Of a DNA stretch of 64,000 bases, positions 1-15,000 are shown one piece after another. Positions within the stretch are counted from its first letter, which is position 1; each line of letters begins with the position of its first letter. The stretch is from Escherichia coli. Lineage in GTDB: Bacteria; Pseudomonadota; Gammaproteobacteria; Enterobacterales; Enterobacteriaceae. The stretch lies in the NCBI RefSeq assembly GCF_003334405.1, contig NZ_QOWM01000002.1; one strand, given 5' to 3'. Made by a program: the position numbers.

Positions 1-3000
1 AGAATACCGGTGTTCCTGGCAATATTATGGGGCATACCACCCGACGGGTGATCCGTGCTCCTGCTGCAGGCATTATGCGATCCAACGTGAAATTAGGCGA
101 TCTGGTGAAAGAGGGCGATGTGATTGCCTGGATTGGTGAGCATGAAATTAAAGCACCGTTGACGGGGATGGTGCGTGGCTTGTTGAACGACGGCCTGGCA
201 GTGGTTGGTGGTTTTAAAATTGGTGATATCGATCCTCGTGGTGAAACCGCTGATTTCACCAGCGTTTCTGATAAAGCCCGGGCGATTGGCGGCGGCGTAC
301 TTGAGGCGTTAATGATGTTGATGCATCAGGGCGTGAAAGCGACAAAAGAAGTGCTGGAAGTGGCTTAAATGAAAATGGCCGGATGGTATTACCCACCCGG
401 CCTGAGACTGATGACAAACGCCAAATTGCCTGATGCGCTACGCTTATCAGGCCTACAAGTGCATTGCAATCTATTGAATTTGCGATGTTTTGTAGGACGG
501 ATAAGGCGCTCGCGCCGCATCCGGCATCAACAAAGCGCACTTACTTGACAATCTTTGGCCGGATGGTATTACCCACCCGGCCTTTAAATTACTGACAAAT
601 CACCGTTCCTGTTTTGCCTTCAATCCCTTCTTTCGCTTTGCTCAATACGGTAATCAGTGCTTCACGACCTGCGCGAGAGCGAGCAAACGAGGCGGCAGCT
701 TCCACTTTAGGCAGCATAGAACCTTTCGCAAAATGACCTTCTTCGATAAAGCGTTCAGCATCACTTAATGACAGGCGATCGAGCCACTGTTCATTCTCTT
801 TACCGAAGTTAATGGCCACTTTTTCTACCGCAGTCAGAATGATCAGCATATCGGCATCAATCATTTCTGCTAAACGGGCGCTGGCCCAGTCTTTATCGAT
901 AACCGCGCTGGCACCACGCAGATGGTTACCTTCACGAATAACAGGGATACCACCACCGCCAACGGTGATCACCACCTGACCTGCATCTACCAGAGCTTTA
1001 ACCGTTTCTTTTTCAATGATATCAACCGGTTTTGGCGAGGCAACAACACGGCGATAGCCGCGACCAGCATCTTCTTTCAGAGTGTAACCCTGTTTTGTCA
1101 GTTGCTCTGCTTCTTGCTCGGTAAAGAACGAACCGATCGGCTTGGTCGGGTTGAGGAATGCCGGATCGTTAGCGTCGACTTCGACCTGAGTAACCAGCGT
1201 TGCTACAGGTTTATTAATGCCCCGAGAAAGCAGTTCTTCTCTTAAAGCGTTTTGTAGATCGTAACCAATATAACCCTGGCTTAATGCAACACAGACAGAC
1301 ATCGGCAGCATTGGCGAGTGCGCTTCAGTTTTTGCGGCAGCTTCAAAGGCCTGGTTAATCATGCCCACCTGCGGCCCGTTACCATGAGTGACGATAACTT
1401 CATGTCCCTGGGCAATTAAATCAACAATTGCCTGAGAAGTAATTTTTACCGCTTTCATTTGCCCGGCCAGGTCATCGCCCAGCGCATTCCCGCCCAGGGC
1501 GAGAACAATTTTCTTACTCATTTTTCCTCACTCATCATTCTTGATTGTGTATAGATCCCTGGCAGTGGTTAGAGCACGGGAGGGACAAACGGTTTGCGTC
1601 GCAGGAAACGACCTCGCCCGGCTTTGCCTGTAAAGGTGCCGTCACAGAAAATCGTTTCACCACGGGATAAGGTTCTGACAATCGCGCCCTGACAGGTAAA
1701 ACCCTCCCATGGCGAGTAGTCGGCGTTGTCGTGGAGATGGCGATGCTGAATTTGTTGGCTCTGACGTGGGTCGATAATCACCACGTCGCCGTCGGAACCG
1801 GGCGCTAATAATCCTTTTTGCGGCCACAGGCCAAACAACCTGGCGGGCATTGCGCTGGTTAATTCAACAAAGCGTTCCGGTGTTATACGTCCCGTCATCA
1901 CGCCACTGGAAAACAGTAACTGCATGCGGTTTTCCACACCGGGTAAGCCATTTGGGCAGCGACTGAAATCGCCTTTAGAAATTTGCAGGCGTTGAGCCAT
2001 CGAGAAGGTGCAGTGATCGGTTGCCACCACGTCAATCGCACCATCGCTGATGCCACACCACAGTTTGTCCTGCTCGCGTACGTTACGCAGCGGTGGGCTA
2101 AGAATGAACTTCATGCCATCTTCTGTATCGTAACTGCGTTCGTCCAACAGGAGATATTGTGGGCAGGTTTCAACCCAGACTGGCTGGTGATTCGCACGGG
2201 CAAGACGCAGATAATCCAGACCTAAGCCGTTAGACAGGTGCACGATATAGAGCGGGGCGTTACCGGCAATTTGTGCCAGGTTAATCATGCGGGCGATGGC
2301 TTCCGCTTCGCATTCCAGAGGGCGACTCAAGGCATGATAGCGCGGCGCGGTTAACCCTGCGGCGATAAATTCCGCCCGCTTGCTGGCGATAGCCGCATCA
2401 TTTTCCGGGTGCACGGTGGTCAGCGCGCCGGATTCATGCAAGCGGCGTAATGCCTGCAAAACCTCGTCATCGTTGAGTTTGTATTGATAGGTTAAATAGA
2501 GTTTAAAACTGCTCAGTCCTTCCTCGACCATCATCGGGATTTCGTCGAGGATTGCGTGATTAATGTGCTGGATCACACCGTGAAAGCTGTAATCGATGAC
2601 CGCTTTATGGGCGGCATAACCACGATAAACCTCCAGTTGATGGCGTAACCGACAGCCGTTTGGGCCAAATCCCATATGGTCAATAATGGTTGTTGTACCG
2701 CCACATGCAGCTGCGCGGGTACCGGTAAAAAAATCATCACAACTGCGCGCGATGCCGACATCAATATTGAAATGCGTATGGACATCCACGCCGCCAGGGA
2801 AAACGTAACAGCCAGTGGCATCAATTTCTTCATACGGGAGCTGCGGCGAAATATTGTTGCCCAACTGGCGAACAATCCCGCTTTCAATCAGCAAATCCTG
2901 TTTGGCTTGTCCATCTGCGTTAACGACAGTGCCGTTTTTGATCAATACGCGCATAGCAAACTCCAAAAACCCTCCGGCGAACCGGAGGGGAATAAGTGAA

Positions 3001-12000: not shown

Positions 12001-15000
12001 GGCGAACAATGTGCGGGATCTGGGTGCTGGAAACGATGGTAATTCGCGAGTCATCCTCCATCCACGCCAGCGATGTTACGCTTTCCATGTGACAATGTTG
12101 AATAACGGGGGTCTGATAGTGCCCCTGTACCTGGTAGTCGGCGGCATCGATTGTTTGTTGGACATTACCCGTCGACATCGTGCTTTGTTTCAGTAAATTG
12201 CCACCGTTATGGATTGGTGCAGCGTCTTCTGCCAGCGCCGCTTCTGGCGTGGTGATAACGGGTAATTCTTGCCACTCAATGCTGACCAATTGCGCCGCTT
12301 TTTCTGCCGTGAGTTCATCGCGGGCCACGACGATGGCAACGGCGTCACCATGATGACGAACATGGCGAGTTAGCAGTGCGCGATCGGCGGTATCGCGCTT
12401 GTTTTCGTCAAGTGTCCAGGCATGCCCAGCTGTAGCGAATGGAATATCAGGCACATCTTCCCAGGTAAAAATCGCCAGTACGCCCGGCAAACTTCTGGCT
12501 TGTTCATCATTAATACTTACGGCATAACCATGTGCGATAGGGCTACGTACATATTTCGCATAACACATGCCCGCCATAACATAATCGTCAGTATATCGTG
12601 CCCGCCCGGTGACCTTAGCAATGGCATCGACGCGCATGCATGATTCACCCGTAGCGGTTGCTTCCCGCGCTTCCATAGAAATCCCCTCGATTTGAACATT
12701 TGGTTCTTATGGCAAAGATTTAGTCTAAGCAGGCAAGATTTACGCCAGAAACGACGATAAGCGTTAGGGGAGGTAGGAAGTGTGATGACGTTAAAAAAAC
12801 ACAGATATGATACGAAACAGGACTCTGAATAGGGGCAGTGATACGTATCAATATGAGTGGCGATAAAATCAATGTGATAAATTGGGATTATTACGCATCA
12901 GGATGGGAAATAGGGTAAAAAGTCAGGAAGTTCGATACCTCTACAGCGAATATTTTGCTGATGATACTTCCCTTTGCCAAATGAAATTAACCTCTTTCTC
13001 TATTACCACGTTTTTCCAGAAGCAAGAGATTGGGTATCAAGAGGCTGGCTGCTATGATAAGGCGTCTTGTTTTTTAAGCGAGGAAAGATTTTGAGTGCGG
13101 GACGCCTGAATAAAAAATCTCTGGGTATCGTGATGTTGTTATCGGTTGGACTGCTTTTGGCGGGCTGTTCGGGTAGCAAATCATCCGATACAGGAACGTA
13201 TTCCGGCTCCGTTTACACCGTGAAACGGGGGGATACGCTATATCGTATTTCGCGCACCACGGGAACCAGCGTAAAAGAACTGGCGCGACTGAACGGCATT
13301 TCCCCCCCTTACACCATTGAAGTTGGTCAGAAACTAAAACTGGGTGGGGCGAAAAGTAGCAGTATTACACGTAAATCAACCGCCAAATCAACGACCAAAA
13401 CCGCATCGGTTACACCGTCATCAGCGGTACCGAAATCATCCTGGCCGCCAGTAGGGCAACGTTGTTGGTTATGGCCAACGACAGGGAAAGTTATCATGCC
13501 GTATTCGACAGCAGATGGCGGCAATAAAGGGATTGATATCTCAGCTCCACGGGGTACACCTATTTACGCCGCGGGTGCAGGAAAGGTGGTGTATGTGGGC
13601 AACCAGCTGCGTGGCTACGGTAATCTCATCATGATTAAACACAGTGAAGATTACATTACGGCTTACGCCCATAATGACACGATGCTGGTAAATAATGGGC
13701 AAAGCGTGAAGGTTGGGCAAAAAATCGCCACTATGGGGAGCACGGATGCGGCATCTGTTCGCCTGCATTTCCAGATTCGTTACCGTGCAACGGCAATTGA
13801 TCCGCTACGTTACTTGCCGCCTCAGGGCAGCAAGCCAAAATGCTGATGGCGAATTAATCAGCAGTCAGCAGCGTGGCACTTGCTAAGGAGAGCGTAAGGT
13901 TTATAATGCCTTACGCATCTCGAAGCGGGCGTAGTTCAATGGTAGAACGAGAGCTTCCCAAGCTCTATACGAGGGTTCGATTCCCTTCGCCCGCTCCAAT
14001 TTATCTTCGCCGTAATACTTCCCCATTTTGTTGTAAATAAAAAGCGTTTACGCAATGCAATCCTTTTGTAACAACCCAGGTAAAACACCTTATTTTCAAG
14101 TTGTTAAATAAGTGGTTATCTACGCTTTTAACAAACGATTGATGGAATATTTTATGAAAGGGAAATCTGCATTAACTCTTCTGCTCGCTGGTATATTTTC
14201 GTGCGGCACATGCCAGGCGACAGGGGCAGAAGTGACGAGTGAATCTGTATTTAACATTCTTAATTCCACGGGGGCAGCAACAGATAAAAGTTATTTATCG
14301 TTAAATCCAGATAAGTATCCTAATTATCGTCTTCTGATTCACTCAGCCAAATTACAAAATGAAATAAAGAGCCACTATACCAAAGACGAAATTCAAGGAT
14401 TGCTAACATTAACAGAAAACACACGAAAGTTAACGTTGACGGAGAAACCCTGGGGAACGTTTATTCTTGCTTCTACTTTCGAAGATGACAAAACAGCGGC
14501 AGAAACCCACTATGATGCTGTCTGGTTGAGGGATAGTTTATGGGGCTATATGGCATTAGTATCAGATCAGGGAAATAGTGTAGCCGCAAAAAAGGTTCTG
14601 CTCACCCTGTGGGATTATATGTCTACGCCCGACCAGATTAAGCGGATGCAGGACGTCATTAGCAACCCAAAACGACTGGATGGAATTCCCGTGCAAATGA
14701 ATGCTGTGCATATCCGATTTGACAGCAACTCCCCCGTGATGGCAGATGTGCAGGAAGAAGGCAAGCCGCAGCTGTGGAACCATAAACAAAATGATGCTTT
14801 AGGTCTTTACCTTGATCTCCTTATACAAGCAATCAACACTGGTACTATTAACGCTGAAGATTGGCAAAAAGGTGACCGATTAAAGTCGGTTGCGCTGCTG
14901 ATTGCTTATCTGGATAAAGCCAATTTCTATGTTATGGAAGATTCCTGAGCATGGGAAGAAGATGCCCGATTAAACACATCTTCCGTTGCACTGGTGACCT

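Follow-up and report, generated by a model that had tools for sequence, protein, structure and literature searches.

The region from 589 to 12676 of a 64,000-nucleotide stretch of an Escherichia coli chromosome (the window; contig NZ_QOWM01000002.1 of assembly GCF_003334405.1) carries the genes ygeW-ygeX-ygeY-hyuA-yqeA on its minus strand. With a probability of roughly 0.9, the genes of this block specify the lower half of the reductive pathway by which uric acid is broken down anaerobically, a pathway also named after 2,8-dioxopurine or 'yanthine'. The substrate that the original prediction for this DNA, made from the sequence alone, had left unnamed is uric acid, entered through 2,8-dioxopurine. 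This function was published in detail between 2023 and 2025; the observation is correct but known. The sole addition of the present analysis is a map of candidate promoters and operators, which extends to E. coli a prediction made for clostridia in 2019.

The ends of the region coincide with the stop codon of yqeA (589) and the start codon of xdhA (12676). All nine genes (Table 1) exceed the curated NCBIfam cut-offs, and all nine reading frames are intact, without internal stops. The block is divided by spacers of 47, 52, 57, and 57 nucleotides (nt); ygeV diverges from it and converges on xdhCBA, which like the block lies on the minus strand. Open reading frame coordinates, NCBIfam scores, and the 47–57 nt spacers thereby confirm what had been described as five co-oriented, tightly spaced genes diverging from ygeV and adjacent to xdhABC. 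In the K-12 annotation ygeW starts one codon earlier, at 6720, and xdhA starts at 12637. Seven of the nine proteins equal those of MG1655 exactly, HyuA M142I and YgeV T388A being the two substitutions, and the ygeV-ygeW spacer (475 bp) matches that of MG1655 at 100% identity. Since proteins and spacer are identical or nearly so, published K-12 experiments apply directly. The region is matched in 5326 of 5426 complete E. coli genomes, with at least 80% coverage in 5156 of them. In a near-identical genome the RefSeq names are arcC (yqeA), hyuA, ygeY, dpaL (ygeX), ygeW, ygeV, and xdhCBA. The window begins within the 3′ end of yqeB, so that ssnA, ygfK, and the gene for an XdhD-type molybdenum hydroxylase fall outside it; in a genome with 3 differences over the window's first 14049 bases these genes lie 3–12 kb beyond coordinate 1. 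The upper module (ygfK-ssnA-ygfM-xdhD) and the transporters are on that side. Orthologues of hyuA, ygeW, ygeY, and ygeX cluster here with a carbamate kinase gene and are linked to the upper module. The locus is the same as the reductive uric acid cluster described for E. coli K-12, Clostridium sporogenes, and Clostridioides difficile (Liu 2023/2025; Kasahara 2023; Li 2025), with no substantive difference; the window holds only the lower module and xdhABC.

The pathway was reconstituted with E. coli proteins by two independent groups in 2025 (Li et al., PMC12507026; Liu et al., bioRxiv 10.1101/2025.04.24.650524). Genetic evidence predates the reconstitution (bioRxiv 10.1101/2022.07.24.501321), and gene context had tied the cluster to selenium-dependent molybdenum hydroxylases and purine catabolism in 2008 and 2013. 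First, urate is reduced to 2,8-dioxopurine by XdhD-YgfM. YgfK and SsnA then reduce and open the six-membered ring to yield ureidomethyl-hydantoin, whose hydantoin ring is opened by HyuA to give 2,3-diureidopropionate (PMC12507026; bioRxiv 10.1101/2025.04.24.650524). Next, YgeW catalyzes phosphorolysis of one ureido group of 2,3-diureidopropionate, releasing carbamoyl phosphate, with which YqeA converts ADP to ATP; in vitro, ATP formation from 2,3-diureidopropanoate required both enzymes. The remaining ureido group is hydrolyzed by YgeY to leave 2,3-diaminopropionate, which YgeX deaminates to pyruvate and ammonia, and coupled YgeY and YgeX assays have been published. XdhABC converts xanthine to urate, channelling other purines into the pathway, and a phenotype of the xdhA deletion is documented (PMC12507026). 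E. coli and C. sporogenes mutants build up urate-derived intermediates, and the purified enzymes convert these. As to the regiochemistry of YgeW, Li et al. (PMC12507026) report removal of the 2-ureido group, leaving albizziin, and Liu et al. (bioRxiv 10.1101/2025.04.24.650524) removal of the 3-ureido group to give 3-amino-2-ureidopropanoate.

The idea of a ring-opening, decarbamoylating pathway for an N-heterocycle has thus been demonstrated by two groups with the same E. coli proteins. Carbamoyl phosphate and ATP are indeed formed, as a side yield; as end products they do not stand, the carbon ending as pyruvate via YgeX. Similarly, the five genes account for the lower half and not for the whole pathway, the upper half being encoded outside the window. 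Anaerobic, nitrogen-limited conditions had been proposed: anaerobiosis holds, and in place of nitrogen limitation the evidence favours urate-inducible, glucose-repressed expression (PMC12507026; bioRxiv 10.1101/2022.07.24.501321). The ATP-forming step resembles the arginine deiminase module, in which phosphorolysis of a ureido group likewise yields carbamoyl phosphate, from which carbamate kinase forms ATP by substrate-level phosphorylation. In contrast to that module, the substrate is 2,3-diureidopropionate rather than citrulline, YgeW belongs to a separate family of knotted transcarbamylases, and three genes lie between ygeW and yqeA.

Control of the locus by sigma-54 and YgeV is likely. The AAA+ domain of YgeV (PF00158, E 2.8e-70), with Walker A GESGTGKE and the GAFTGA motif in the translation, and its helix-turn-helix of the Fis type (HTH_8, E 3e-13) identify it as a sigma-54 activator. 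RpoN holoenzyme binds the ygeV/ygeW spacer in vitro (a genomic SELEX, gSELEX, peak), co-expressed genes have been grouped as the 'YgeV iModulon', and ygeV is among the genes required for urate consumption (bioRxiv 10.1101/2022.07.24.501321). The candidate ygeW promoter TGGCACACTTATTGTT is the only -24/-12 match with at most one mismatch in the ygeV-ygeW spacer (score 10/12). The ygeW ATG follows 93 nt after the end of this element, whose predicted transcription start is at about 6800 and whose GG and TTGTT are preserved in five diverse E. coli strains. Comparable loci were fetched by searching representative genomes with the YgeV sensor region: L087, on a 5.2-Mb chromosome, and L088 and L089, from metagenomes. 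In L087 and L088 the proteins are 49–53% (YgeV), 80–82% (YgeW), and 88% (YgeY) identical to those of E. coli, and ygeV again diverges from ygeW-ygeX-ygeY-hyuA-yqeA in the same order, flanked by a yqeB-like gene and ygfK on one side and by a molybdenum hydroxylase gene and ygfT-ygfS on the other. At both loci ygeW is preceded by TGGCA(C/T)-N6-TTGTT, like its E. coli counterpart, the xdh promoters are near-consensus (11/12) and keep the E. coli distance of 56–57 nt to the start codon, and the ygfK promoter aligns with E. coli TGGTGCGATTGTTGCT. This conservation argues that the candidate promoters of both ygeW and xdhA are real. In Firmicutes, near-consensus -24/-12 elements are found upstream of ygeX beside YgeV-like genes. 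The sigma-54 link of the original prediction is therefore supported by sequence, conservation in distant loci, RpoN gSELEX binding, and YgeV iModulon co-expression.

The -12 half of the ygeW promoter is TTGTT rather than TTGC(A/T) in three divergent loci (window 6811–6815; L087, 9710–9714; L088, 9868–9872), and TTGC is retained there by the promoters of xdh and ygfK; the ygeW version gives the impression of a -12 element conserved in a deliberately sub-optimal form. An alternative -24/-12 candidate in the spacer, GCTGGCATCAATTTGTGA at about 6897–6880, was rejected: its -12 half misfits and its GG is lost in strain ES5. In the predicted 5′ untranslated region of ygeW (6746–6783), CAAAGTGGTT and CAAAGTGATT (plus strand) form a pair of 10-nt direct repeats 28 nt apart, which are not seen in L087.

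Upstream of these promoters recurs a palindrome that may be the operator of YgeV. Its 13-bp form before ygeW and xdhA is TATCA-N3-TGA(G/T)A, and a 12-mer, TATCAATATGAG, is common to the ygeW/ygeV, xdhA, and uacT/ygfT promoter spacers of E. coli. TATCA-N3-TGA occurs 10 times in the 41-kb E. coli locus where 1.14 occurrences are expected, 8 of them within promoter spacers. Enrichment was scored for TMTCA-N3-TGAKA with at most one mismatch and compared with 100 shuffles per locus: the E. coli locus (L002) has 10 copies against 2.95 expected, a number reached by none of the shuffles; L087 has 7 against 1.39 (1 shuffle in 100 reaching 7); and L088 has 10 against 1.08 (none reaching 10). The ten promoter spacers of the three loci (3742 bp) contain 14 copies, 8 of them perfect, with at least one in each spacer, and composition-matched first-order Markov simulations of these spacers gave a mean of 0.52 and a maximum of 4 copies in 1000 runs. 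The density is 3.74/kb in the spacers as opposed to 0.26/kb in AT-rich control DNA (the rest of the window). Copies lie 104–209 bp upstream of the -24 GG, and one at 307 bp. Exact enumeration of gapped palindromes had found nothing common to the spacers; the motif emerged once one half-site was relaxed. Outside the window, the same arrangement of palindrome and promoter precedes ygfK and uacT. A Fur-box reading of the ygfK palindrome was dropped, since the DioR motif discussed below fits 18 of 19 positions. The region upstream of aegA, a ygfT paralogue, contains neither a palindrome nor a correctly spaced -24/-12 element in MG1655, and since it lacks both, aegA is not among the predicted members of the regulon.

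Further copies and variants of the spacer deserve mention. A perfect palindrome, TATCAAGATGATA, lies at 5184–5196 within ygeX, about 280 nt into the coding sequence, and no -24/-12-like element occurs within the 100–200 bp that follow it; either chance or an additional YgeV site may explain it. In strain EC24 an IS1 element is inserted in the ygeV-ygeW spacer at roughly window position 7075, between the candidate activator sites, and in strains HL15 and SF10 ygeV is split by IS1 into two pseudogene pieces (loci L091/L092). Urate is consumed at different rates by different E. coli strains (Liu et al.), and the IS1 variants, as natural regulatory mutants, might explain such differences.

A close known counterpart in regulation is the sigma-54 regulon of DioR in Clostridiales (Nie et al. 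2019, PMC6615313), in which a YgeV-like activator adjoins dpaL, ygeW, ygfK, ssnA, ygeY, and xdh genes; its function was listed as 'Unknown' in 2019. The DioR motif TTATCA-N3-TGATAA lies, like the E. coli palindrome, roughly 100–300 bp upstream of -24/-12 promoters. Predicted sites precede the dpaL, ygeW-ygfK-ssnA-ygeY, and xdh operons, examples being ATTTATCATAATGATAAGG in C. botulinum and TATTATCATTTTGATAATA (PMC6615313), and a single base separates the E. coli ygfK site CATTATCATAATGATAAGG from the C. botulinum sequence ATTTATCATAATGATAAGG. In a Sedimentibacter locus, three perfect copies stand between the YgeV-like gene and ygeX, 130–290 bp upstream of TGGCACAAGTTTTGCT. The helix-turn-helix region is conserved as well. 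E. coli differs from the DioR regulon in the TTGTT of its ygeW promoter, in a half-site that is often TGAGA, and in a CRP box between the sites and the promoter. The E. coli locus has an adjacent AAA+/GAFTGA/helix-turn-helix activator and, about 100–300 bp upstream, candidate YgeV binding sites, and a literature search found no report of these palindrome sites for E. coli.

In its N-terminal 260 residues, YgeV gives only a short PAS match in Pfam and nothing else with confidence. In the AlphaFold (AF2) model (predicted local distance difference test, pLDDT, 84.5), a GAF domain comes first and a PAS domain after it, and the fold of this part matches that of the N-terminal region of E. coli DhaR (DhaR(N)) and of GAF domains in other activators. 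YgeV has been described as an orphan response regulator (PMC9426417); this was rejected, as the Pfam scan finds no receiver domain and the N-terminus models as GAF and PAS. Within the GAF domain, Cys84, Cys87, and Cys93 (Cys-x2-Cys-x5-Cys) are invariant in 26 relatives of 24–41% identity, and Glu95 is invariant too in an 11-sequence set, which suggests that the motif may hold a metal or redox centre. The extended motif Cys-x2-Cys-x5-Cys-x-Glu (residues 84–95, window 7445–7480) is invariant in relatives of 24–52% identity ranging from Proteobacteria to Firmicutes. A genome scan with full-length YgeV was dominated by generic sigma-54 activators sharing the FLDEIGDM pattern, so that few full-length relatives were useful; the homologue search returned E. 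coli sequences only, at 99–100% identity, and distant orthologues were found with the N-terminal 268 residues on representative genomes. A full-length YgeV paralogue, 38% identical, occurs in Citrobacter werkmanii (locus L003, 7207–11740), where it diverges from genes for a ygeX-like lyase (51% identical) and an M20 hydrolase (32%), both preceded by the -24/-12-like TGGTAAGCATTTTGCT; this may be a separate sigma-54-controlled module for diaminopropionate or ureido-amino acids.

The CRP-like box of the spacer lies between the palindromes and the ygeW promoter and is invariant in five strains. The FNR-like box upstream of xdhA overlaps the first candidate YgeV site there, and the same composite of FNR-like box and palindrome, TTGATACATATCACATTGAGA, occurs in the distant ygeW spacer of L087 at about 9918–9931. 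By count alone neither box exceeds chance. PrpR/prpBCDE of enteric bacteria is a CRP-dependent sigma-54 catabolic operon with a divergently encoded sigma-54 activator. The ygeW locus resembles it in the divergent activator gene, the candidate sigma-54 promoter, and a putative CRP site in the spacer that would give catabolite repression, and differs in its pathway and in the sensor of YgeV, a GAF-PAS unit with the three-cysteine motif. A role of CRP at ygeW can be inferred from promoter replacement: when the 'native Crp-binding site' of the spacer was swapped for constitutive promoters, glucose repression was abolished (Li et al., PMC12507026).

Taken together, these elements suggest a mechanism in which YgeV, as a GAF-PAS sigma-54 activator, would bind TATCA-N3-TGA(G/T)A palindromes 104–307 bp upstream of the ygeW and xdhA promoters and activate their -24/-12 elements by DNA looping; glucose repression would follow from CRP placed at about -77 of the ygeW promoter. 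Even odds are given to the wider proposal that YgeV is the proteobacterial orthologue of DioR and the master of a purine-to-pyruvate regulon (ygeW, xdhA, ygfK, and uacT), with an operator shared by Firmicutes and Enterobacteria and a metal or redox centre at the GAF cysteines.

Several hairpins bear on the structure of the transcript, with folding placing one in three of the four internal spacers of the block. Between ygeY and hyuA, a hairpin (z = -2.8) looks like a true intrinsic terminator in its 8-bp GC stem, UUCG loop, and five following U residues; its U-tract enters the ribosome-binding site of hyuA. The hairpin downstream of yqeA probably marks the end of the transcription unit, and that between ygeV and xdhC is probably a bidirectional terminator. 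Beside the former, the convergent yqeB-yqeA spacer holds a repetitive extragenic palindromic (REP)-like palindrome, GTAGGCCTGATAAGCGTAGCGCATCAGGC; the whole 369–480 region has a folding energy of -42.9 kcal/mol (z = -4.5).

A number of points weigh against the pathway assignment and the proposed control. The two biochemical papers disagree over the ureido group taken by YgeW. The ygeW promoter, correctly spaced, has GT instead of the consensus GC in its -12 half, and the xdhA element is weak (8/12). The palindrome pattern was widened after L088 had been seen, which makes the enrichment statistic partly post hoc; the Sedimentibacter locus and the published DioR sites are the independent tests. 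A literature search found no direct demonstration that transcription of E. coli ygeW needs rpoN or ygeV, and another role, in indole signalling and the control of locus of enterocyte effacement (LEE) virulence genes, has been proposed for YgeV under the name IsrR (PMC9426417). Finally, the published YgeV iModulon list contains hyuA and lacks yqeA. Because yqeA is missing from that list and a hairpin follows ygeY, the block is probably not a simple single transcript; the operon suggested by co-orientation and tight spacing stands in its gene arrangement and probably not as one five-gene message.

Some of these points would fit an ordinary sigma-70 promoter under CRP and anaerobic control at ygeW, with YgeV acting elsewhere, as IsrR on the LEE, and the -24/-12 match being fortuitous. 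Li et al. (PMC12507026) mention the Crp site alone in the spacer, the YgeV iModulon is rarely active, LEE regulation by YgeV is the subject of the IsrR paper (PMC9426417), the ygeW -12 is non-consensus, and the simple -24/-12 pattern is not enriched across the window (51 matches versus 42 expected), so that the ygeW and xdhA candidate sites, taken alone, are weak evidence. However, in three divergent proteobacterial loci ygeW, xdh, and ygfK are preceded by -24/-12 elements conserved in position and sequence, near-consensus elements precede ygeX beside YgeV-like genes in Firmicutes, the shared palindromes lie at distances typical of activators, and RpoN holoenzyme binds the spacer in vitro. The sigma-70 consensus itself is not enriched (10 found versus 13.7 expected). 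A sigma-70 promoter is therefore improbable, and control by sigma-54 and YgeV is retained as likely.

As to the enzymes, YgeW and YgeX have solved structures of their own (3q98; 4d9g and related entries), the closest solved structure to YqeA is the carbamate kinase 1b7b (E 5.5e-90), HyuA matches D-hydantoinases (E about 1e-109), and a structure search found no near solved structure for YgeY at E ≤ 1e-30. The RefSeq name 'D-phenylhydantoinase', the best matches of hyuA (TIGR02033 and solved D-hydantoinases), and the placement of YgeY in the M20 family would also suit a hydantoinase process, in which HyuA opens exogenous 5-substituted hydantoins such as phenylhydantoin and YgeY, as an N-carbamoyl-amino-acid amidohydrolase, releases D-amino acids. 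The M20 family also contains carbamoylases. However, no racemase or hydantoin permease is annotated in the block; carbamoyltransferase, carbamate kinase, and diaminopropionate lyase would be superfluous; and the urate-derived intermediates that mutants accumulate are converted by the purified enzymes. This highly improbable explanation is already largely refuted. Remoter still is a cluster acting on selenium compounds, suggested by the RefSeq/NCBIfam names 'YgeY family selenium metabolism-linked hydrolase' and 'putative selenate reductase subunit YgfK' and by phylogenetic co-occurrence with orphan SelD and yqeB/yqeC, since YgfK reduces 2,8-dioxopurine, YgeY cleaves a ureido group, and the selenium link is an indirect one through the selenium-dependent cofactor needed by the molybdenum hydroxylase of the pathway. 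Reductive breakdown of uric acid is thus the reading kept for the block.

Table 1. Genes and candidate regulatory features of the uric acid locus (window coordinates)
Feature	Position	Strand	Evidence or remark
yqeA/arcC, carbamate kinase	589-1521	-	TIGR00746, 385.6 bits (cut-off 358)
hyuA, D-hydantoinase	1569-2954	-	TIGR02033, 675 bits (cut-off 393)
ygeY, M20 hydrolase (amidohydrolase)	3007-4218	-	TIGR03526, 721.6 bits (cut-off 322)
ygeX/dpaL, pyridoxal phosphate-dependent diaminopropionate ammonia-lyase	4276-5472	-	TIGR03528, 651 bits (cut-off 532)
ygeW, knotted catabolic carbamoyltransferase	5530-6717	-	NF005538, 825 bits (cut-off 453)
ygeV, sigma-54 activator (enhancer-binding protein)	7196-8974	+	Pfam domains, translation
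xdhC	9014-9493	-	NF007387/NF007427/NF007426 set, above cut-off
xdhB	9490-10368	-	NF007387/NF007427/NF007426 set, above cut-off
xdhA	10379-12676	-	NF007387/NF007427/NF007426 set, above cut-off
Candidate sigma-54 promoter of ygeW, TGGCACACTTATTGTT	6811-6826	-	GG at 6825-6824, -12 TTGT
Candidate sigma-54 promoter of xdhABC, TGGCGTAAATCTTGCC	12732-12747	-	GG/GC with canonical spacing; 56 nt before first ATG
Candidate YgeV upstream activator site, TATCAATATGAGA on ygeW sense strand	7028-7040		perfect TMTCA-N3-TGAKA
Weaker palindrome copies, ygeV-ygeW spacer	6999-7011 and 7126-7138		TMTCA-N3-TGAKA
Two candidate YgeV sites upstream of xdhA	12846-12858 and 12867-12879		palindrome match
CRP-like box, TGTGATCAACCCCACA	6870-6885		one mismatch to TGTGA-N6-TCACA; centre ~77 bp upstream of inferred start
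FNR-like box, TTGATACGTATCAC	12838-12851		one mismatch; overlaps candidate YgeV site 12846-12858
Intrinsic-terminator-like hairpin between ygeY and hyuA	2970-2989	-	CCCUCCGG-UUCG-CCGGAGGG then UUUUU
Hairpin between ygeX and ygeY	~4238-4260	-	folding
GC-rich hairpin between ygeW and ygeX	5502-5523	-	folding
Strong hairpin then T-run downstream of yqeA, shared with convergent yqeB	377-402	-	folding
Palindromic hairpin between convergent ygeV and xdhC	8984-9007		-20.5 kcal/mol, z = -5.6

Beyond xdhA, from 13067 to 23000, follow actS (ygeR), a tRNA-Gly gene (13925–13995), and the decayed ETT2 type III secretion island, whose YscQ- and EscU-family genes are frameshifted according to the annotation of the near-identical genome and which is unrelated to the catabolic block. 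An Rfam scan of positions 1–14500 returned this tRNA-Gly alone and no riboswitch or leader of a known type.

About one third of human urate is cleared by gut bacteria, and the E. coli block is one model version of the pathway; a probiotic already engineered to carry it lowers urate in mice. Concrete candidate sites for mutation are supplied by the promoter and operator map. If the regulatory proposal is true, the GAF domain with its cysteine motif would let transcription integrate a purine signal with anaerobiosis, and the sites would give a handle on the differences in urate consumption between strains and on the engineering of uricolytic probiotics.

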